From assembly GCA_964524195.1 (NCBI GenBank), contig CAZGCC010000002.1, forward strand, positions 1 to 48,069: a stretch of DNA of 48,069 nt, given 5' to 3'. The position numbers and the translations under genes were made by a program. The DNA is from an uncultured bacterium. Lineage in GTDB: Bacteria > Omnitrophota > Omnitrophia > Omnitrophales > Aquincolibacteriaceae. The notes under the pieces are model-generated. The model saw nothing but the letters and a program-made list of their open reading frames with translations, made no database searches and was not told the DNA's origin. Each line of letters begins with the position of its first letter. Within the stretch, counting starts at the first letter, position 1. Of the stretch, positions 11,077 to 20,102 are shown piece by piece.

Positions 11077-12270
11077 TTATTTTGTGATATCGATAAGCCG
11101 CTGAATGACTTCTTCGACGACGCGATTGGGCGTGGACGCCCCGGCCGTGATCCCGATCTTGAGCGCTCCTCCGGGAAGCCAGTCCGGAGTTTCAAGAATG
11201 TCCTGAGTTCCGGTCTTCTTGTGCCGGATCTTTTCACTCGAAACAAGCGAAGAAGCGTCTTCGACATGGAATGCGGGACAAAATTCCGAGGCGATCTCGG
11301 CCAGATGCCCCGTGTTGCTGGACCGGTAGCCACCGATCACAAGGATAAGGTCCATCTTCTTTTCGCCCAACTCCCGGATCGCATCCTGCCTGTCCTGCGT
11401 CGCCGAACAGATCGTATCAAAATGACGGAAACGGTCCGGAAGCTCTCCGGCTCCGTAGCGCCTTGCGAGCGCTTCGCGCAGCATATCCGAGATCTCGATC
11501 GATTCGCGGGAAAGCATGGTCGTCTGATTCGCAAAACCGATCTTCCCGAGGTCTTTCTCCGGATCCAGTCCCGCAGAGCATGCGTCTTTGAATTTCCCAA
11601 GGAATGTTCCACGGCTACCCCCTGGCGTTTCTTGCCAGGCCCCCGTGGGATCCCCTGCGATATATTGGCAGACCTCCTGAGCCTCTTTTTTATCCTTCAC
11701 CACGAGATATTTCGCCGCCCGCGAACAGGTCGCGCGGGTTTCTTCGTGGTCGTACTTGCCATGGATCACCGCGGTAAAACCATCCCGGCTGTAGGATTCC
11801 ACGCGGCGCCAAACGCTCATCACCGAACCACAAGTCGTATCCACGATCACGCAGCCTTTTTTCTGGAATTCCTTAAGCGCGCCCACCGGCACCCCGAAAG
11901 CCGGCATGATCACTACATCCTTTTCGGTGATCCCGGGACAAGATGTGTCGCTTGCGAGGATCTGGACCCCCATCCCCTGGAGTTCCGCGTTCACGCGCGG
12001 ATTATGGATGATCTCATTGGTCAGAAAAATGCGGCGGTCCGGGAACCGCGACCGGGTCTCGTAGGCGTATTGCACGGCGCGCTCCACACCGTAACAAAAG
12101 CCAAATTCCCGGGCGAGATGGATCTCAAGGCGGCCGGCTTTCATGAAAAATCCCGCGGCGCGGACTTGATCGATCAAGGGGCTGTGATAACTTTGATCGA
12201 GTTGGGATTGGACGATATTCTTGAGCCCGAAACTTGCGGGAGAACTCTTTCCGGGATCGGCCATGAGCAT
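11077..12270 (-). CDS. ispH: 4-hydroxy-3-methylbut-2-enyl diphosphate reductase IspH (long, cyanobacterial/plant-like form)
   Basis: Contains LAREFGFCYGVERAV and NEIIHNPRVN motifs. I trimmed the start to the ATG at 12270, 5 nt after the upstream stop. The longer ORF to 12510 overlaps the upstream gene. Confidence 0.85.
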   Translation of the reverse strand: MLMADPGKSSPASFGLKNIVQSQLDQSYHSPLIDQVRAAGFFMKAGRLEIHLAREFGFCYGVERAVQYAYETRSRFPDRRIFLTNEIIHNPRVNAELQGMGVQILASDTSCPGITEKDVVIMPAFGVPVGALKEFQKKGCVIVDTTCGSVMSVWRRVESYSRDGFTAVIHGKYDHEETRATCSRAAKYLVVKDKKEAQEVCQYIAGDPTGAWQETPGGSRGTFLGKFKDACSAGLDPEKDLGKIGFANQTTMLSRESIEISDMLREALARRYGAGELPDRFRHFDTICSATQDRQDAIRELGEKKMDLILVIGGYRSSNTGHLAEIASEFCPAFHVEDASSLVSSEKIRHKKTGTQDILETPDWLPGGALKIGITAGASTPNRVVEEVIQRLIDITK

Positions 12271-12275
12271 GTCTT

Positions 12276-13277
12276 TCAGGAGGAGGCGATCTTGCGGACT
12301 GTCACGCCGGCCTGCTCCAGCAGTTTGAGCGAAAGTTCCAGGAAGGGATAATTCCCCTGGTAAACGACTTCCGCGATCCCGGCGTTGATGATCATCTTGG
12401 TACACATAAGGCAGGGCGAAAAGGTCGTGTAAAGCGTCGAGCCTTTGACGCTCACGCCGTGATAGGCCGCCTGAACGATCGCGTTCTCTTCTCCGTGCGA
12501 GCAAAGGCATTCCCCGAGATCTTTGCCGGACGCGTCGACCGCGTTGCAGCGCGGACAGCCTCCTTCGTTACAATTTTTGATCCCGCGAGGCGTTCCGTTG
12601 TATCCAGTCGAAATGATACGCTTGTCTTTGACGATCACGGCCGCGATCCGCCGTTTCATGCAGTTGGAACGCATCGCCACGACCTTCGCGATATTCATAA
12701 AATATTCGTCCCAACCTGGGCGATAGGCTTTTTGCGCGAGATCGAGCATGATCTGCTTTACCTTCTCATGCATTTCTTTCAGGGGGCCGTTATTGTCGAT
12801 CTGAAGATCCGCCAAAGCGAGGGCCTGATCAAGCTGCTGGTCGGTCTTGTTCTCGCTTTTCGCTTCCTTGGCCTCAAGCGCCTGGAAATCTTCCCACACC
12901 CGGGGGTCGTTCTCGCGGCCGCGCTGCTTGAGCCTTTCAAAACGGAGCCGTTCGGGAGCATGAATGCGGACAAGCGTAAAATCATTGCGGCGGCGGAAGA
13001 CCTGGATCTCGGAGGGATGACGGATCGAATCGATCACATAATGCTTTTCGGGATCCAGCTTCGCGATGATCCGCTCGGCGAGACAGCCCGGACCTTCTTT
13101 TTCGCGAAGCTCATTCCCCAAGGCGACAAGCGCTCCGCGCGTCACTTCTTGACCGCGTCTTTTAGCTTCGTCCCGGAGCGCATCGGACAGCGAATAGTAA
13201 TGAAACCCGCGCTCCTTCAAAAAATGCGCCGCTTCTCCCTTGCCTGATCCATTTTTGCCCGTAAGACCAATGATCAT
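12276..13277 (-). CDS. Fusion of an N-terminal P-loop nucleotide kinase-like domain with a C-terminal dCMP deaminase (CDA fold)
   Basis: N-terminal MIIGLTGKNGSGKG P-loop. C-terminal CSHGEENAI...SPCLMCTKMIINAGI zinc-binding deaminase motifs. The start is taken at M19, just after the upstream stop. Confidence 0.75.
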   Translation of the reverse strand: MIIGLTGKNGSGKGEAAHFLKERGFHYYSLSDALRDEAKRRGQEVTRGALVALGNELREKEGPGCLAERIIAKLDPEKHYVIDSIRHPSEIQVFRRRNDFTLVRIHAPERLRFERLKQRGRENDPRVWEDFQALEAKEAKSENKTDQQLDQALALADLQIDNNGPLKEMHEKVKQIMLDLAQKAYRPGWDEYFMNIAKVVAMRSNCMKRRIAAVIVKDKRIISTGYNGTPRGIKNCNEGGCPRCNAVDASGKDLGECLCSHGEENAIVQAAYHGVSVKGSTLYTTFSPCLMCTKMIINAGIAEVVYQGNYPFLELSLKLLEQAGVTVRKIASS

Positions 13278-13287
13278 AAAATTCCTC

Positions 13288-13875
13288 TTAAGAGTGGATC
13301 CAAAAATCGGGTGAATAAAACCGCTGATCACCGGCGTGCCGTTCGATCAGGATGAGATGGCTGGCGTTCTTTCCGTCTTTGATCTCCGGCTTTGCGGCAA
13401 TTTCCCGAAGAATATCGCCGTGCTGCCCTGCGGGAGGCCTGATAAAACCTACGGCCTGTTTTTCGAGGCGGAAAACCGCTTCATCGATATCCTCAACGCG
13501 CACAGCCAAGGCATAAGGTTTTTTATCTCCAAAATGCGCGACCCAATCCAGGCCGGATTTTTCATGAGGATGTTCTACGAGGATCGCCGGAGCGCATCCC
13601 TTGCGCAGGACCTCCACGCCATGCCCCCGATGCTCAAGGATTTTGGCGGCATGATCTCTTTCGTAACCGAGCGCCAGGAATTCCTGCGTCCGCTCGGCAA
13701 GATGGACAGTGCGGAAAACAAGATGGTCAAGAACGGGGCGAATGCCAACCCCCACAAGCAAAAGGCCGCGCGTCACGACCCGGACGGCAGGATTCTCGGC
13801 AGCAAGTCCCTCAGCATACTCTTTCAAAACTTGCTCGATCATGGCGGCGTCTTTGCAGCCGGAAGCAGATGTCAT
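13288..13875 (-). CDS. Hypothetical protein, possibly VOC/glyoxalase-like or DUF1338-like
   Basis: A 195-aa ORF with SD AAAGGAA upstream. The DHLVFRT motif is reminiscent of DUF1338. The family assignment is weak. Confidence 0.4.
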   Translation of the reverse strand: MTSASGCKDAAMIEQVLKEYAEGLAAENPAVRVVTRGLLLVGVGIRPVLDHLVFRTVHLAERTQEFLALGYERDHAAKILEHRGHGVEVLRKGCAPAILVEHPHEKSGLDWVAHFGDKKPYALAVRVEDIDEAVFRLEKQAVGFIRPPAGQHGDILREIAAKPEIKDGKNASHLILIERHAGDQRFYSPDFWIHS

Positions 13876-14368: not shown

Positions 14369-15232
14369 TCAAAAAGAGGGCTCTTTATTTTCACCGAGGG
14401 TCATCAGCCGTTCGATGCGTTTCTCGACCGGAGGATGGGTGTGGAAAAGAGAGGACCAACCCTTCCCGGAAAGCGGGTTCATGATAAAAAGATGCGCGGT
14501 CGCGGGATTGGCATCCCGCAGAGGAAACCTCTGGATTGTAATTTCGATCTTCTTAAGCGCGCTCGCCAGATAAAGCGGCTCCCCGCAAAACCCGGCTCCC
14601 TGCTTATCGGCTTTGTATTCGCGGGATCGCCAGATCGAAAGCTGGATCAATGCCGCCACAAAAGGCATGACGGCCGCGAAGAGAATCAGCGGTAGAGGAT
14701 TATCACGGTCCCGGTCATCCCGCTCCCCACCCCAGGAAAAAGACCAGCGGAACATCGAGGCGATCATGCTGAGCACTCCGGCTAGAGCCGCCACGATCGA
14801 GGAAATCAGAATATCGCGCTCCAGGATATGGGACAGCTCATGCCCGAATACTCCGGAAAGCTCTTCTTTATTGAGAAGCCCGACGATCCCGTGCGTCAAA
14901 GCGATCGCCGCATGTTGGGGGCCACGGCCTGTCGAAAAAGCGTTGGCCGAAGCCGATGGCAGCATATAAAGCCGCGGCGCGGGGATGCCTTCCTTCGTTG
15001 AAAGCCCTCGTATAATCTCGAAAACTTCAGGGGCCTCGCTTTCAGCCAACGGCTGTGCGTGGGTCATCGAAAGCACGATCCTGTCGCTGAACCAGAAGAG
15101 AAAGAAATTCATCACGCAGGAAAAAATAAAAGCGAACAAGATCCCCTTCTGTCCGCCAAGCACATGACCACAGAAGGCCGCCAAAATCGTCAGCGCCGTC
15201 ATCAACAATACCATCTTCAAAAGAGCTGCCAT
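14369..15232 (-). CDS. htpX: M48-family zinc metalloprotease HtpX
   Basis: HELSHI zinc motif, four TM segments, and a C-terminal THPPVEKRI motif. Confidence 0.85.
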   Translation of the reverse strand: MAALLKMVLLMTALTILAAFCGHVLGGQKGILFAFIFSCVMNFFLFWFSDRIVLSMTHAQPLAESEAPEVFEIIRGLSTKEGIPAPRLYMLPSASANAFSTGRGPQHAAIALTHGIVGLLNKEELSGVFGHELSHILERDILISSIVAALAGVLSMIASMFRWSFSWGGERDDRDRDNPLPLILFAAVMPFVAALIQLSIWRSREYKADKQGAGFCGEPLYLASALKKIEITIQRFPLRDANPATAHLFIMNPLSGKGWSSLFHTHPPVEKRIERLMTLGENKEPSF

Positions 15233-15247
15233 ACCGATTCGCTACCG

Positions 15248-15772
15248 CTAAGGATGAAACCCTATCGACCGCTTGGGTTTCTCTTCGATGGCAATGATCC
15301 GTTCAACAAAACCGAACAATGCGCGAATATCTTTTCCGTGCCTCTCGATATGCCGTTCCACCTTTTCCATGCGCAATGCCAGATCCTTATTTTCAAAGAG
15401 CACCTGCCGGATCCTGGAAAAAACTCTCATGATCGCAATGTTCACTTGAATGGCCTTGGTACTATTCAGAACACTTGAGAGCATCAAGATCCCATGCTCC
15501 GTAAATGCATACGGAAGGTATTTGCTGTATTTTCCACGCCCCGGACTGTCTAAGGTGCCAAATTGGCACCTTAGAGCCGCGACTTCTTTTTGGTTCAAGC
15601 GATACAAGAAATCCCCAGGGAATCTCTCAAGGTTGCGGTTGACCTGCCTTTTGAGATACTTCGTCTCTACCCCATACAAGGCCGCCAGATCGGCATCCAT
15701 CATGACCTTTTGGCCCCGCATGAGAAAGATGGATGAGGCTATCGGCGGGAGCGTCCGCATTGATTTACCCAT
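15248..15772 (-). CDS. ORF6N-domain DNA-binding protein
   Basis: IFLMRGQKVMMDADLAALYGVETKYLKRQVNRNLERFPGDFLY...LPYAFTEHGILMLSSVLNSTKAIQVNIAIMRVF is the ORF6N signature. The ATG at 15772 has SD AGAGGA and overlaps the upstream stop by 8 nt. Confidence 0.75.
   Translation of the reverse strand: MGKSMRTLPPIASSIFLMRGQKVMMDADLAALYGVETKYLKRQVNRNLERFPGDFLYRLNQKEVAALRCQFGTLDSPGRGKYSKYLPYAFTEHGILMLSSVLNSTKAIQVNIAIMRVFSRIRQVLFENKDLALRMEKVERHIERHGKDIRALFGFVERIIAIEEKPKRSIGFHP
15549..15575. repeat. 27-nt perfect palindrome inside the ORF6N CDS
   Basis: TCTAAGGTGCCAA-A-TTGGCACCTTAGA has 13-bp perfect arms and a 1-nt centre. Confidence 0.9.
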
Positions 15773-16850
15773 GAAATCCTCTAAGCATTTCTCTTGGGCG
15801 CTGCTGCAGGAACATTCTTTCCCGGGCCAATTCGTTCCGGAGCTCTTTTGCGGTGGGGAGATAAAGTTTATATTTTGACGCAAAAAGTTTTTTGCTGTTT
15901 TTCAGTATTGAATACCGAACCACCGTTTCGTCCTTTTCAGAACAAAGAATGATCCCGATCGTCGGGTTATCCTCCGGTTCCCGGAACCGGTCCTCATAAA
16001 GCCGGACATACATGTCCATTTGTCCGATGTCCTGGTGGGTGAGCTCTCCCACCTTCAGATCGACCAGGACAAAACATTTAAGCACATAATTGTAGAACAC
16101 CAGATCAATGAAGAAATCCTTTGTTTCCGTGGTCACCCGCTGCTGTCTGGCCACAAATGAAAAACCGCGCCCAAGTTCGAGGAGAAATCTCTGGATCTGC
16201 CCGATCAGAGCTTTTTCTACATCTTTCTCTAAAAGCTCCGTCCCGCCCCTCAGGCCCAGGAATTCCAGAACATACGGATCTTTTATAAGATCTTGAGGCT
16301 CGATATCCCGGTTGGAAACCTGCCTTTGAGACTTCTTCGCGAGCTTAACCCGGCTCTTGCTGGAAAGCAGCCGTTCGTAATAATGGCTATGAATCTGCCG
16401 CGCGAGAACACGAACGCTCCACTTTCCGGCTACGACTTCATTTCCGTAGAACCTCCGGGGCTTTTCGTCTTCAACGCGAATGAGTAACTTGTAATGCGAC
16501 CAGCTCAATTCGCTCCACAGTGTGGAGCGAATCTTGAAGAGCCCGTAAAATTGCCGCATATTCCGCAAACTTTGCTCCGAAAATCCTTCTCCAAAATCAC
16601 GGGTCAGACGATCGGAAAGGGATTTGAGCATATAAGCGCCGTAATCTGCGCGGCTCCGTCCTTTTTGTTCTTCTTCTGCGATCTCCCTGCCGATCGACCA
16701 ATACGCGAGAACCATCTCGGAGTTGACGGCCCAAACGGCTCTGGACCTCGCTGATGCAAGGATCTTCCGGATGCGACCATAAACTCCCGGACATGCGTTC
16801 GCACTTTTTCCCAAACTCGCTCGAAGCAACCCGTCATGATTTTTTTTCAT
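15765..16850 (-). CDS. YhcG-like PDDEXK nuclease (DUF1016 family)
   Basis: N-terminal WSIGREI...LRNMRQFY and C-terminal FFIDLVFYNYVLKCFVLVDLKVGELTHQDIGQMDMYV (D...D/ExK core) are typical of DUF1016. The start is taken at MKKNHDG (16850). Confidence 0.75.
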   Translation of the reverse strand: MKKNHDGLLRASLGKSANACPGVYGRIRKILASARSRAVWAVNSEMVLAYWSIGREIAEEEQKGRSRADYGAYMLKSLSDRLTRDFGEGFSEQSLRNMRQFYGLFKIRSTLWSELSWSHYKLLIRVEDEKPRRFYGNEVVAGKWSVRVLARQIHSHYYERLLSSKSRVKLAKKSQRQVSNRDIEPQDLIKDPYVLEFLGLRGGTELLEKDVEKALIGQIQRFLLELGRGFSFVARQQRVTTETKDFFIDLVFYNYVLKCFVLVDLKVGELTHQDIGQMDMYVRLYEDRFREPEDNPTIGIILCSEKDETVVRYSILKNSKKLFASKYKLYLPTAKELRNELARERMFLQQRPREMLRGFHG

Positions 16851-16929
16851 GAAAGAAGGATAACACGATATTTGCTTAATAGCAATATTATATTGCTTAT
16901 TAATCATTGATAGAAACAAGCGTATCTAA

Positions 16930-17159
16930 CCGCTGAAGCATGGCATTGAAGCTTATCGCAAGACCATCAAAATCAGTCGCACTATCGCGGATCTAGCGGG
17001 CTGCGAACAAATCCAGTCGGAACATATCGCGGTCCCAATACCTATCAATTTCAACTTGTTGAAATTGGGGCCGTCCAAGTCCCCCTTAATGAAAAGAAAT
17101 TAAAGACTTGGGCGGAGGCGATTCAGTATCGGAGTTTGGACCGTCAATGGTGGAGTTGA
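16930..17159 (+). pseudogene. Remnant of the ComM/YifB (Mg-chelatase-like) C-terminus, interrupted by R1
   Basis: PLKHGIEAYRKTIKISRTIADLAGCEQIQSEHIA, then an 83-nt insert, then EAIQYRSLDRQWWS*. It is preceded by an in-frame TAA and has no N-terminal ATPase part. Confidence 0.7.
17032..17114 (+). repeat. Two-hairpin element R1 (83 nt)
   Basis: GTCCCAATACCTATCAATTTCAACTTGTTGAAATTGGGGCCGTCCAAGTCCCCCTTAATGAAAAGAAATTAAAGACTTGGGCG. Stems are CAATTTCAAC/GTTGAAATTG and CCAAGTC/GACTTGG. Confidence 0.85.
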
Positions 17160-17166
17160 GGTGGCT

Positions 17167-17634
17167 TTATTTGAACTGTTCTTTGACTTTGGCTCGGGTG
17201 AGATAATATGTACTCGCAAATAAAAAAATTAACGCTGCCACCAACGATCCAACGGCTGCCATTTTGTAAGCTTGAGAAATAGGTAACATGAAAACATAAA
17301 CAATCCCTATCAAAAAGATGACGAAAAATATCTTATTGAATATTAGGGTTTGCAATCTTGCTTTGTTTGACAGTTTGAATAATCCTACTGAAATCGCAAT
17401 CATCAGATATAGCGGTATTGCCGGAAAAGCAATGTTAATTAAAACCAACGGAAGAAGAGATGCGGGATTTCCATATTCACTATGCACTTGATTTTGAAAT
17501 AACGCCTGAAAAAATCCAGCTAATATCAATAAAATTGGCAGCAAAAAGGGAATGCCACAGCACAAGTATAAAACAGCAAACGCTGTCACGCCCTTGGTCC
17601 TTTTCATTTCCACAAACCCCTCCTCCGCTTTCAC
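17167..17634 (-). CDS. Small polytopic membrane protein (about 4 TM), hypothetical cassette gene
   Basis: Hydrophobic segments throughout. The C-terminus ...RAKVKEQFK is shared with an internal site of the 18538..19311 protein. The coding region is AT rich. Confidence 0.6.
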   Translation of the reverse strand: MKAEEGFVEMKRTKGVTAFAVLYLCCGIPFLLPILLILAGFFQALFQNQVHSEYGNPASLLPLVLINIAFPAIPLYLMIAISVGLFKLSNKARLQTLIFNKIFFVIFLIGIVYVFMLPISQAYKMAAVGSLVAALIFLFASTYYLTRAKVKEQFK

Positions 17635-17784
17635 ATCTATTGCCGTGTTATGACAATCCCGGTAGCGTCTTCATTATCGACTCAAATCGACTCCGCTAAA
17701 GGGCGGCCAGCTCTTCCCAGCGGATCATCACGATCGGAACAAACTCGGGATATTCATGGGCTATATAAAGCAAATCCTTGTTCG

Positions 17785-17868
17785 GTCCCAACACCAATCA
17801 ATCGAAACACAGTTGAGATTGGGGCTGCCCTTGTCACCATTAACTAAAAAAAATTAAAGACAAGGACG
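17785..17868 (+). repeat. Two-hairpin element R2 (84 nt)
   Basis: GTCCCAACACCAATCAATCGAAACACAGTTGAGATTGGGGCTGCCCTTGTCACCATTAACTAAAAAAAATTAAAGACAAGGACG. Stems are CAATC..AAC/GTT..GATTG and CCTTGTC/GACAAGG. Confidence 0.8.
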
Positions 17869-17869
17869 G

Positions 17870-18067
17870 ATTCTTAAGATCGCCCGAACGATCTCGGACC
17901 TTGCCGGCTGCGAGCAGATCCAGTCCGAACATATTGCGGTCCCAATACTTATCAATTTCAGCTTCACTGAAATTGGGGCTGCCCTCGTCACCACTAGTGA
18001 AACGAAATTAAAGACGAGGGCGAAGGCGATTCAGTATTGGAGTCTGGATAGGCAGCGTCGGGGATAG
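17870..18067 (+). pseudogene. Second remnant of the ComM/YifB C-terminus, interrupted by R3
   Basis: ILKIARTISDLAGCEQIQSEHIA, then an 84-nt in-frame insert, then KAIQYWSLDRQRRG*. It starts directly after R2. Confidence 0.7.
17939..18022 (+). repeat. Two-hairpin element R3 (84 nt, stop-free in the ComM frame)
   Basis: GTCCCAATACTTATCAATTTCAGCTTCACTGAAATTGGGGCTGCCCTCGTCACCACTAGTGAAACGAAATTAAAGACGAGGGCG. Stems are CAATTTCAG/CTGAAATTG and GCCCTCGTC/GACGAGGGC. Confidence 0.85.
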
Positions 18068-18147
18068 AATAATGGCTCTAAACACAGGGACGGTTCTCAA
18101 TAACCCGTGCGGTAGCAATCAATTAAAGAAGTTTCGGCCCTGGGGTT

Positions 18148-18501
18148 TTATGATTTATCCTTTTTTTGCCGAGGCAGTTCCCCTTTAAAGTTAATTCCAC
18201 AATGAAAACAGGTATCTCGGAAAAAAACCAATCCTCCTAGCCGCCAGCGAAAAGGATAAAAATACTCGGAACAGTGTGGGCACTCCACAAAGCAAGGCGC
18301 CCATGCCGCTATTATTAGCAAAAGACACAGTAGAAAAGAACCAGCGGTTAGCTTTAACTGAAAAAAGCTACCTCCTATTACTATAATTGAGAGAATCGCA
18401 GCCCCACAGATGAGCGGGACAAACCGCAACCACGATAACCGTTTAAGCGCTTTCAAGACATCAGGACTGTGTGTTTTTATCGGTTCTGTATTCATCCCCA
18501 C
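18148..18501 (-). CDS. Small membrane protein with a C-terminal CxxC...CxxC zinc-ribbon-like motif, hypothetical
   Basis: Two TM segments, then ECPHCSEYF...DTCFHCGINF. Confidence 0.55.
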   Translation of the reverse strand: MGMNTEPIKTHSPDVLKALKRLSWLRFVPLICGAAILSIIVIGGSFFQLKLTAGSFLLCLLLIIAAWAPCFVECPHCSEYFYPFRWRLGGLVFFRDTCFHCGINFKGELPRQKKDKS

Positions 18502-18537
18502 AACCCCCTTTTCTTTTTTCTGGTTTCCTTCTGCGGT

Positions 18538-19311
18538 TTAAGAAATTAAACCTTTTTTTTCCAATCTTTTAGTATAAACACAAACAGCCAACAGCATCCC
18601 CCATGAGATCAACATGCCAATAGGCCTTCCGATTGTCGTGCCTGCGCCAAAAGTTTGGAATGAACCTTTGCCAACAATGTTCCATAAAACTGTCCATGTC
18701 CCCACAACGAGGCTGGCCATAAAAAAATAATATGCCCGTTTGCGAAGATAAAAAAACAATACAGCGCCTATCAAAGCGGTTAGCCAGCTAATGGTCGACA
18801 AGCTCCAATCTGTAAATGTCAAACTCTCAAAGAATGCTTTTTGTACCGGTGGAAGCGGAATCTCGCCTAAAAAGGCCAGCTGGAAAAAAGTCAACGAAGA
18901 AATGGCTGAAAAAAAATAGTATATCGAAATAATCCAAACCCATCCCGGGCGTCTTGTGTTTTCTGCGCCCTTGTTTCTTTTGAACTGTTCTTTAACTTTG
19001 GAGTTATTGAAATAGAACATGACGAAAATAAATCCTGCGATTAAAGGCAACTCTGCCAATAAAGCGTTATGACGCATCAATGCTTTTATGAATATAAAAT
19101 TCAGGAGTAACATGCCCGAGATCGAAACAAAAGCTAAAGTCCTGGCCCACTCTTTAAGAAACAATAGACCGACCCCAGAAATGAGCAACAACGCATACAA
19201 CGCGATCCTGTACCATCTATGAATAATCAAGGCTTCGGGGGCAAGAAACAAAACGCTTAATAAAATAAAGATGCCGCCAAGAACTCTTATCACCATTGCA
19301 TGTTTGTTCAT
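18538..19311 (-). CDS. Polytopic membrane protein that looks like two fused cassette modules, hypothetical
   Basis: Start taken at MNKHAMV (ATG 19311, G-rich SD upstream). The first module ends at NSKVKEQFK, homologous to the C-terminus of the 155-aa protein. A second 4-TM module follows. Confidence 0.55.
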   Translation of the reverse strand: MNKHAMVIRVLGGIFILLSVLFLAPEALIIHRWYRIALYALLLISGVGLLFLKEWARTLAFVSISGMLLLNFIFIKALMRHNALLAELPLIAGFIFVMFYFNNSKVKEQFKRNKGAENTRRPGWVWIISIYYFFSAISSLTFFQLAFLGEIPLPPVQKAFFESLTFTDWSLSTISWLTALIGAVLFFYLRKRAYYFFMASLVVGTWTVLWNIVGKGSFQTFGAGTTIGRPIGMLISWGMLLAVCVYTKRLEKKGLIS

Positions 19312-19453
19312 TTTTATACCCCCCTGCTCGTCACATTCCCTAATTACCCCATCCCCATGTCTTCCGCTTTGGAAAACCGCCTCGGATTTCAACAGCCCTC
19401 TTTCGCAGCATTTTTTAGCTGCTTCCTCTGGTTTCCCATTCCTCAAAACAAAC

Positions 19454-20020
19454 TCAAGAGACCTTGTAAACCTCATCGCCTTTCACAACCCTTTGCCTGG
19501 CATTCTCATCAATGATGCCGGAAGCAGAGAATTTTTGATAAATCTTCTCGACCTTGACCGTGGCAATATCTTCACCGCCTCGAACAACTTTGAGCCTGTC
19601 CCCGACCTGAACTCCATCCTGAAGCCCAGCATTAACCACCAAGAAATTAAATTCACGGTCTACACTTACCACTTTGTAAGCCAAGGCGCTCATCGCCCCC
19701 GAACCTGATAAATTCTCTTCCTGCAAAGAAGTCTGGACCGCTTTTGTGATGGAGTGCTGAGCATTCAATCGATAGCCTATCCATCCCACGGCCAGTGAAA
19801 GAACCAAAACCACAAGAACTCGCCGCCAACCAGGCTTACCATTCCCCGGCTTATTCTTTATCTCATGAGTGGGTGAAAAAATTGCGCGGGTTGGCTGAGA
19901 AACAGGATCCTCGCTTTTCTCTCTTGTTTCAGGATCATGGCTGACTACAAATTCTCCGCAGAATCGACACTTAACAGCTTCTTCCTGGATCTCTTCCGCG
20001 CAAAAAGGACATTTCTTCAT
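19454..20020 (-). CDS. Zinc-ribbon / single-TM protein with a C-terminal beta-rich domain, hypothetical
   Basis: MKKCPFCAEEIQEEAVKCRFCGE zinc ribbon. TM segment WRRVLVVLVLSLAVGWIGY. The C-terminal domain has the GDRLKVVRGG...VKGDEVYKV pattern. Confidence 0.6.
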   Translation of the reverse strand: MKKCPFCAEEIQEEAVKCRFCGEFVVSHDPETREKSEDPVSQPTRAIFSPTHEIKNKPGNGKPGWRRVLVVLVLSLAVGWIGYRLNAQHSITKAVQTSLQEENLSGSGAMSALAYKVVSVDREFNFLVVNAGLQDGVQVGDRLKVVRGGEDIATVKVEKIYQKFSASGIIDENARQRVVKGDEVYKVS

Positions 20021-20102
20021 TCTCGCACCCCCTTCCCGTTCATTTGACCTTATTTCCCGAATTCACAAATAACTCCTGGCGCCTCGCATCCGAGAGTGCC
20101 CC

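Follow-up and report, generated by a model that had tools for sequence, protein, structure and literature searches.

A 48,069-nt stretch of contig CAZGCC010000002.1 from an uncultured bacterium, referred to here as the window, contains three copies (R1, R2 and R3) of an 84-nt sequence that forms two hairpins. These copies are very probably insertions of a non-autonomous mobile palindromic element, belonging to a large, undescribed family analogous to the MITEs (miniature transposable elements with inverted repeats) and to the Rickettsia palindromic elements (RPEs). An earlier note on the window, made from its letters, had likened the copies to RPEs as short, hairpin-forming, multi-copy sequences inserted in frame, and this likeness is borne out by dispersed copies, supported stems, empty sites and residence within genes. 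Nothing relevant on a repeat or MITE of the phylum Omnitrophota, and no description of the element, was found in the searchable, incomplete literature.

Filled and empty insertion sites

Repeat finding combined with alignment recovered the copies where the earlier note had placed them, all on the + strand, with R1 at 17032-17114 (83 nt), R2 at 17785-17868 (84 nt) and R3 at 17939-18022 (84 nt), i.e. spaced by 754 and 154 nt. The combined motif ATTGGGGC..AATTAAAGAC was observed three times in the window as compared with 0.00 expected from shuffles, and no fourth copy was detected in the 48 kb by either a profile (nhmmer) search or a covariance-model (CM) search. Because the same trinucleotide is repeated at either end, the boundaries of the element are ambiguous by 3 nt: CGG is found at 17030-17032 and 17113-17115 around R1 and at 17783-17785 and 17867-17869 around R2, while R3 has CGG at 17937-17939 and CGA, that is, CGG with one change, at 18021-18023. 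R1 is 1 nt short, the missing base being that of a loop in hairpin 1 (H1). As already read from the letters, R3 is open in the frame of ComM and R2 carries a TAA in it. R1 and R3 share 81% identity, within the 75–87% typical between copies, and their flanks share 78% and 71%.

Translation demonstrated that R1 and R3 both lie between ..SEHIA and (E/K)AIQY(R/W)SLDRQ of two ComM C-terminal remnants, in agreement with the identical codon junction proposed before. When the remnant around R3 (remnant B) was used in a protein search, ComM C-termini with an uninterrupted ..SEHIAEAIQYRSLDRQ were retrieved, and none of the intact or uninterrupted C-termini examined carries the 28-residue segment. The same search returned two fragments (P0002 and P0003) that share the non-ComM/ComM junction found upstream of R2 but are devoid of R2. 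Contig L123, which encodes P0003, was the source of the comparison at the DNA level. Its sequence AGCAAATCCTTGTTCGGATTCTTAAGATCGCCCGAACGATC is identical over 41 nt to the window with R2 removed, its CACATCGCGGAAGCC represents the empty R1/R3 site, and the window minus R2 and R3 aligns colinearly with it. The comM-remnant sites and the site upstream are wholly empty in L123/L124 and in P0002-P0006. Since both kinds of window site are empty in L123, all three copies are clean insertions; the description of the copies as sitting at rearrangement junctions therefore did not hold, R2 not being at such a junction at all.

A further pair was provided by the zinc-ribbon open reading frame (ORF) of the window (19454-20020; MKKCPFCAEEIQ..), which reads TGC GCG GAA GAG and represents an empty site, its homologue in contig L081 having an 84-nt in-frame element between GCG and GAA. 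Furthermore, in at least three different composite sequences copies were nested in hairpin 1 of others, the position being the same in each case. Filled versus empty sites and nested copies demonstrate that the element is mobile. The R2 site is also filled in contig L019, but by a different H1 subfamily, hairpin 2 (H2) being nearly the same. Similarly, at the orthologous site of L025 and L077 the H1 identity is 73% versus 93% for H2, the upper stems of H1 belonging to different subfamilies. Such swaps of subfamily, together with the high conservation at orthologous sites, suggest module exchange or gene conversion.

Hairpin structure and modular build

Folding of each copy gave two adjacent hairpins, as the earlier note had predicted; the z-scores on the + strand were -3.9 (R1), -2.5 (R2) and -5.0 (R3). 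An alignment of 135 copies fitted to the covariance model had standard pairs in 92.6% of its cells, in contrast to 24–51% when the partners were slid by 1–3 columns; both-sided changes were seen in 21 of 23 pairs, and the observed pairing values were reached by none of 500 shuffles. As this alignment was fitted to the model, the analysis was repeated with MAFFT and RNAalifold on 34 diverse copies, which yielded the same two hairpins, with compensatory changes in 13 of 22 pairs. It is clear that the hairpin structure is under selection, and the compensatory stem changes first proposed from three copies stand in the larger alignments.

Within hairpin 1, the foot GTCC/GGGC is invariant, a 10-nt bulge (CAAYACNNAT) is conserved and the upper stem is variable, switching between subfamilies (e.g. 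TTCAAC/GTTGAA, CGAAGC/GCNGAG and CACAGC/GCTGTG). GTCC and GGGC had been listed before as unpaired blocks, but they form this foot instead. Hairpin 2 is composed of the foot (G/A)TCC/GGA(C/T), a freely co-varying stem and an A-rich loop. The block AAATTAAAGAC, earlier taken to be shared, is indeed conserved in the subfamily of the window; across the family, however, it corresponds to the variable A-rich loop. The modules are codon-sized. Measured between junction trinucleotides in 100 copies, a length of 42 nt is found for the H1 module in 96 and for the H2 module in 60, and the whole unit amounts to 84 nt in 58.

Hairpins are present at both ends of the element without long terminal inverted repeats, the terminal inverted symmetry being short (CNGTCC...GGACNG, ~6 nt), and the junction of tandem units forms the palindrome GGAC-N-GTCC. 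The variants seen comprise units with two H1 modules, tandem arrays and longer multi-module arrays. In three contigs (L046, 639-771; L001, 3209-3225 on the - strand; L100, about 1480-1506) the 3' half of hairpin 2 directly precedes a full element, the half-module of L046 being identical over 26 nt to the end of the element it precedes. These half-modules resemble tandem units truncated at the 5' end.

The flanking trinucleotide

For each filled/empty pair, the one CGG of the empty site is seen on either side of the 81-nt core. Across the family, TCCC is preceded by a YNG trinucleotide, which recurs as the final three bases of the element in 64 of the 91 non-redundant copies (CGG 28, TAG 14, CTG 7, CAG 6, TGG 5, CCG 4). 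Beyond it the flanks have no consensus except for a weak AAG on the right. The trinucleotide differs between subfamilies and is tied to the internal triplet between the hairpins, the combinations being CGG-CCG, TGG-CCA, CCG-CGG and TAG-CAA. Random target duplication would not give such a tie, and the target therefore appears to be matched to the element's own end; the 3-nt flanking repeat may accordingly be a matched core and not a target-site duplication.

Distribution of the family

Copies beyond the window, as expected from the earlier note, are numerous. Searching species-representative genomes with a three-block DNA pattern gave two matches, both intergenic and both in metagenome-assembled genomes (MAGs) of Candidatus Omnitrophota, one directly upstream of glmU and the other between a cold-shock gene and rsmE. 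With a hairpin-1 pattern, at least 120 metagenomic contigs were found to carry the element, the flanks being unrelated among the 130 matches listed, and no match was obtained in viral contigs. A covariance model built from five copies returned 135 full-length matches in 100 sources. The two Omnitrophota MAGs are the labelled hosts, the metagenomic contigs being taxonomically unlabelled. Rfam 15 contained no relevant match for the element at either gathering or permissive thresholds, so that the proposed check against curated families came out negative. A profile search with the 28-residue frame-1 peptide, doubled to reach the minimum length, found six short ORFs and no host proteins, in an index unsuited to so short a segment.

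Neighbouring genes were covered to at most about 14 kb around each match. The 148 ORFs adjoining copies, scanned against Pfam, represent ordinary housekeeping genes with no common function and no recurrent mobility gene. Likewise, clustering of 816 ORFs from the same loci revealed housekeeping families only and no partner transposase. Intergenic copies are biased in orientation relative to the neighbouring genes (22 versus 8, mostly antisense); a test for replication-strand bias was negative overall, with 25 copies at positive and 33 at negative local GC skew. In L001, the ATG of glmU comes 2 nt after the end of the element and has AAGGA 4 nt upstream. A variant hairpin 2 in L006 (1220-1309, - strand) contains AAGGAG and ATG, apparently the ribosome-binding site and start of the downstream ORF.

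Residence within coding sequences

In-frame insertion into coding sequence, as claimed before for the ComM remnants, was also found elsewhere in the family. By simple ORF calls of our own, as distinct from curated annotation, 23 of 100 canonical copies lie within same-strand ORFs, and six lie within opposite-strand ORFs (143–290 codons, some of them maybe spurious). All but two of the 23 have exactly 84 nt (28 residues), and the three sense frames are all used (9, 11 and 3 copies). The hosts are conserved proteins. In a malic enzyme, an Fe-alcohol dehydrogenase and a ThiH-like radical-SAM protein, the insert interrupts or lengthens the Pfam domains; also among the hosts are UvrA, a histidine kinase, an RnfC-like protein, a hydrogenase-4-type membrane subunit and a 4105-codon ORF. 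Compared with a solved structure, the malic enzyme has ~30 extra residues where chain 1gq2 runs without a break from 276 to 279, and the insert of UvrA is likewise extra with respect to 3ux8.

Because its length is divisible by three and one or more sense frames are usually open, the unit is often tolerated when inserted within a gene. Deletion of those copies that are not read through rescued only eight short, doubtful ORFs, so there is no population of split genes awaiting splicing or bypass. The copies in genes have the sense orientation. Avoidance of stop codons and peptide hydrophobicity account only in part for the pattern of sense copies in genes and antisense copies between them, one antisense frame being hydrophilic as well.

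Proposed mechanism and alternative explanations

As no enzyme was found, the mechanism is one that we infer. The copies would be moved in trans by an enzyme encoded elsewhere, which would recognise the conserved foot and bulge of H1 and the shape of the hairpins rather than the sequence of the stems, and would insert the element where the target trinucleotide agrees with the terminal one of the element. Insertion takes place at a YNG trinucleotide (CGG for all three window copies), which is then present on both sides of the 81-nt core, so that each event adds 84 nt, or 28 codons.

Several observations weigh against the interpretation as a selfish mobile element. No transposase or recombinase is encoded by the 30 window ORFs scanned or by the 148 ORFs adjoining copies, and the 48-kb window has just three copies, all within 1 kb. 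At orthologous sites, the coding flanks are often less conserved than the copies themselves (e.g. L091/L103 and L043/L095), which could reflect host function or gene conversion and not pure selfishness. The taxonomic assignment comes from the two labelled MAGs, the in-gene share of 23% depends on the ORF calls described above, and it is the preserved reading frames that suggest translation of the insert as an extra segment of 28 residues.

A structured RNA (the gene of a small RNA, or a pair of cis-regulatory hairpins) whose function produced the covariation would agree with the strong compensatory variation in both stems, with orthologous-site copies sometimes more conserved than their flanks and with the orientation bias between genes. 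It is nevertheless very improbable, as copies are present or absent at otherwise identical sites, are nested, and occur within coding sequence in three frames and in both orientations relative to neighbours that have no common function; Rfam, even at the permissive threshold, has no match. In gene 60 of phage T4, translation bypasses a segment between take-off and landing codons, and the earlier note had offered a tiny intron or a bypass of this kind, between the GCG codons that bound both R1 and R3, as one alternative. The identity of these codons stems from the repeated trinucleotide, and a hairpin does follow directly after the upstream junction. Moreover, the byp elements of Magnusiomyces mitochondria are likewise mobile palindromes inside genes (PMC6649704). 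Removal from expression is nonetheless hardly credible: 21 of the 23 in-gene copies are stop-free and 84 nt long, which would be needless if they were skipped, removing the non-open copies restores no split genes, the last codon before the element and its own last codon differ elsewhere (e.g. CCG/GCG in L025 and GCG/CCG in L043), and the window copies lie in pseudogene fragments, making their expression moot. The other alternative of that note, a recombination site of islands at the comM 3' end (att or integron-like attC) with the material between copies as cassettes, was suggested by the clustering of the three copies in or next to comM 3'-end duplicates, by spacings resembling those of small cassettes and by the comM remnant that is joined via an element to a tRNA gene in L125. 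It has largely been refuted already and is just as implausible, since excision of a cassette would leave one copy of the site, whereas the sites in L123/L124 and P0002-P0006 are wholly empty, and since most members of the family, genic and intergenic alike, occur in contexts unrelated to comM. The attC and att sites have a GTTRRRY core, an adjacent integrase and one site left on excision; no core of this type is seen at the element boundaries, and no integrase in the 30 window ORFs or in the DNA inserted at comM in L123.

For the mobile element itself, the engine tentatively favoured is a single-strand, hairpin-recognising transposase of the HUH/Y1 type, as in IS200/IS605 or REP-RAYT (repetitive extragenic palindromes, REPs, and their associated tyrosine transposases), because the stems vary freely with pairing kept and the hairpins are local, not end-to-end. 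With such an enzyme, the internal triplet beside the foot of hairpin 2 would help to specify the cleavage site and the target trinucleotide. A different engine is a serious possibility, albeit short of an even chance: a DDE transposase that prefers YNG and duplicates 3 bp of the target, or the integration of a circular copy, by a serine/tyrosine recombinase, at a trinucleotide that matches the junction core of the element. The 3-nt direct repeat around the 81-nt core and the short terminal symmetry CNGTCC...GGACNG would suit these enzymes, the tandem-junction palindrome GGAC-N-GTCC is of the kind bound by a dimeric recombinase, and a core-matching model explains the agreement of flank and element end within subfamilies. 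A plain duplication, however, leaves the tie of the trinucleotide to internal stem bases (CCG-CGG, CCA-TGG, CAA-TAG) unexplained, the H2 stem varies in sequence with its pairing kept, which points to recognition of shape, and the ORFs adjoining copies include no gene for such an enzyme. It is unlikely, though worth stating, that the 42-nt codon-sized hairpin cassettes choose their own targets, the internal C-N-R triplet beside the hairpin foot specifying the trinucleotide of the site by a guide-type or core-matching rule that varies with the subfamily, and the modules being exchanged or homogenised. If true, the family would be more than one more set of MITEs: the element would direct its own targeting, be recognised by its structure and routinely remodel conserved proteins of a free-living phylum, with the class of its transposase yet to be found.

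Relation to known short repeats

In two sources (PMC10969869, PMC6649704), RPE-1 to RPE-10 (Ogata et al. 2000, 2002) are described as short hairpin repeats of Rickettsia, occurring between genes and in frame inside them. The window family shares with the RPEs its short, hairpin-forming, multi-copy and selfish character without a gene of its own, its residence both between genes and in unrelated conserved genes, to which a peptide is added with the frame kept, and a mobilising enzyme that is unknown in both. The hosts are different, being obligate intracellular Rickettsia for the RPEs and environmental bacteria of the Omnitrophota type for the window family, and so is the length (about 100–150 bp versus 84 nt). 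Unlike the RPEs, the window family consists of two equal 42-nt modules, which were seen in H1-H1-H2 and tandem arrangements as well; it is clearly flanked by a 3-nt repeat and uses all three sense frames. It appears analogous to the RPEs and not a member of them, being set apart by length and labelled hosts, and no relationship in sequence is expected.

Like the MITEs and modular repeats (Correia/NEMIS, ERIC, BOX and RUP; PMC10969869), the window family is small, non-autonomous and dispersed, with flanking repeats that may be target-site repeats, occasional intragenic in-frame copies and a modular build (boxA-boxB-boxC in BOX). It resembles the MITEs in coding for no transposase, in its multiple copies and in its presence or absence at homologous sites. 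Classical MITEs, however, have terminal inverted repeats matching a known insertion sequence and form one long end-to-end hairpin, whereas the window family has two local hairpins of free stem sequence and ~6 nt of terminal symmetry, and no cognate insertion sequence was found among the 148 neighbouring ORFs or in the window.

Local hairpins, a structure conserved over stem sequence and a short conserved sequence at the hairpin foot are also known from REP/REPIN with RAYT and from IS200/IS605-derived palindrome-associated elements, the latter having hairpins at both ends and no long terminal inverted repeats, as found here. The relation of the flank to internal sequence beside the hairpin foot is reminiscent of the pairing between guide and cleavage site in IS200/IS605, reportedly described by Barabas and colleagues in 2008. 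REPs are extragenic by definition, in contrast to the 23 of 100 copies within same-strand ORFs, and IS200/IS605 inserts next to a fixed tetra- or pentanucleotide without a repeat, while the window family has a trinucleotide that varies with the subfamily and is repeated at the 3' end. No Y1 or RAYT gene was present in the sampled loci around copies (at most about 14 kb each).

Until now, in-frame coding palindromes have been regarded as a peculiarity almost unique to Rickettsia; of a similar process in other prokaryotes, a 2024 review states merely that it 'is conceivable' (PMC10969869). The window family would represent a second large example, from an uncultivated and environmentally widespread lineage, and one that has entered core enzymes, e.g. 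malic enzyme, UvrA, Fe-alcohol dehydrogenase and radical-SAM proteins. Its many natural filled/empty pairs bear on how proteins tolerate insertions of 28 residues, on the spread of hairpin repeats without a visible transposase and on the matched trinucleotide as an element-directed choice of target. Such inserts can also mislead gene calling, domain annotation and the comparison of MAGs.

Locus of the window copies

The features of the locus are given in Table 1. Over the 21 codons upstream of the element, the remnant around R1 (remnant A) and remnant B differ by 10 synonymous and two non-synonymous changes. With codon changes that are mostly synonymous, the remnants diverged as coding sequence, which agrees with the protein-level selection claimed for them before. 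None of the 30 window ORFs scanned with Pfam (the 20 largest and 10 around the element) contains a comM, integrase or transposase domain, as the earlier note had said, and the window has no tRNA or tmRNA.

Table 1. Features of the window around the three copies of the element.
Feature	Position	Strand	Evidence
comM 3'-end remnant A, upstream of R1 (..EAYRKTIKISRTIADLAGCEQIQSEHIA), including the left CGG 17030-17032	16935..17032	+	Sequence reading; matches ComM C-termini P0004-P0006, which carry PF13335 Mg_chelatase_C
R1, core and 3' CGG (83 nt; H1 41 nt, H2 42 nt)	17033..17115	+	CM match, 101.7 bits; homologous site empty in L123
comM remnant A, downstream of R1 (EAIQYRSLDRQWWS, then stop)	17116..17159	+	Translation
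Conserved non-comM sequence before the comM remnant in several contigs (..AGCAAATCCTTGTTCGG), ending in the left CGG of R2	17745..17785	+	Colinear with L123 and L019; same junction in proteins P0002 and P0003
R2, core and 3' CGG (42 + 42 nt)	17786..17869	+	CM match, 95.2 bits; site empty in L123 (41 nt of perfect identity across), filled in L019
comM remnant B between R2 and R3 (ILKIARTISDLAGCEQIQSEHIA), including the left CGG of R3	17870..17939	+	Translation; comparison with ComM C-termini and L123
R3, 84 nt, stop-free in the ComM frame, 3' trinucleotide CGA	17940..18023	+	CM match, 106 bits; homologous site empty in L123
comM remnant B, downstream of R3 ((K)AIQYWSLDRQRRG, then stop)	18024..18067	+	Translation
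Empty target site tgCGCGGAAG, CGG 19998-19996, codons 7-10 of the zinc-ribbon ORF 19454-20020	19993..20002	-	L081 homologue filled exactly there, in frame

A related arrangement was found in L123 (663-6180), where an intact comM (505 residues) is followed by 3.7 kb with three unrelated genes, an esterase and two unknown genes, and then by a second, diverged comM 3' end; the 3.7-kb insert contains no integrase. Such an arrangement is characteristic of DNA that entered at the 3' end of comM and brought a replacement end with it. The only identical stretch between the two comM ends of L123 has 11 nt (ATCGCCCGAAC) and lies close to the left margin of the duplication. The window locus is like the comM 3'-end islands in that a duplicated, diverged comM 3' end flanks inserted DNA, as in L123, and unlike them in that no integrase is present in the window or in the L123 insert and the window has no intact comM. 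The two comM ends of the window are pseudogenic scars of insertions at the comM 3' end and not a specific target of the element; their coding divergence fits an origin as once-functional ends. comM is thus a bystander, R1-R3 having landed in leftover comM ends and in sequence just upstream of one of them, and the odd-looking locus is explained by three ordinary insertions into comM-end scars.

In L125 (122-400), an H1-H1-H2 element comes after a comM remnant, and in place of EAIQY the next sequence reads, by eye, as the 3' end of a tRNA gene on the other strand. This join possibly arose by recombination between copies of the element, so that rearrangement at copies can occur elsewhere; the window requires none.

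The stretch of the window from about 15200 to 20050 has a GC content of 0.44–0.46, in contrast to 0.51–0.56 elsewhere. It is probably acquired DNA, in which the scars were probably carried. Its genes are an ORF6N gene (15248-15883, - strand) and a YhcG/DUF1016 PDDEXK nuclease gene (15765-16919, - strand), besides the comM remnants and three ORFs without a Pfam match, two of which look membrane-like by eye. The comM remnant of L123/L124 is likewise followed by an ORF6N gene, and in L103 such a gene adjoins a DUF1016_N-containing host protein. A sub-threshold Rfam match to the SAM-II riboswitch at 18145-18189 (- strand; 20.3 bits versus a gathering threshold of 44, E = 0.62) is most likely due to chance. 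Outside this stretch, a LytB/IspH ORF of 477 residues (11077-12510, - strand) has its 267-position Pfam match spread over 343 residues after an N-terminal extension of 130 residues, and it overlaps by 235 nt with an ORF for a deaminase and AAA domain (12276-13331, - strand). Insertions or a mis-set start codon are possible explanations.

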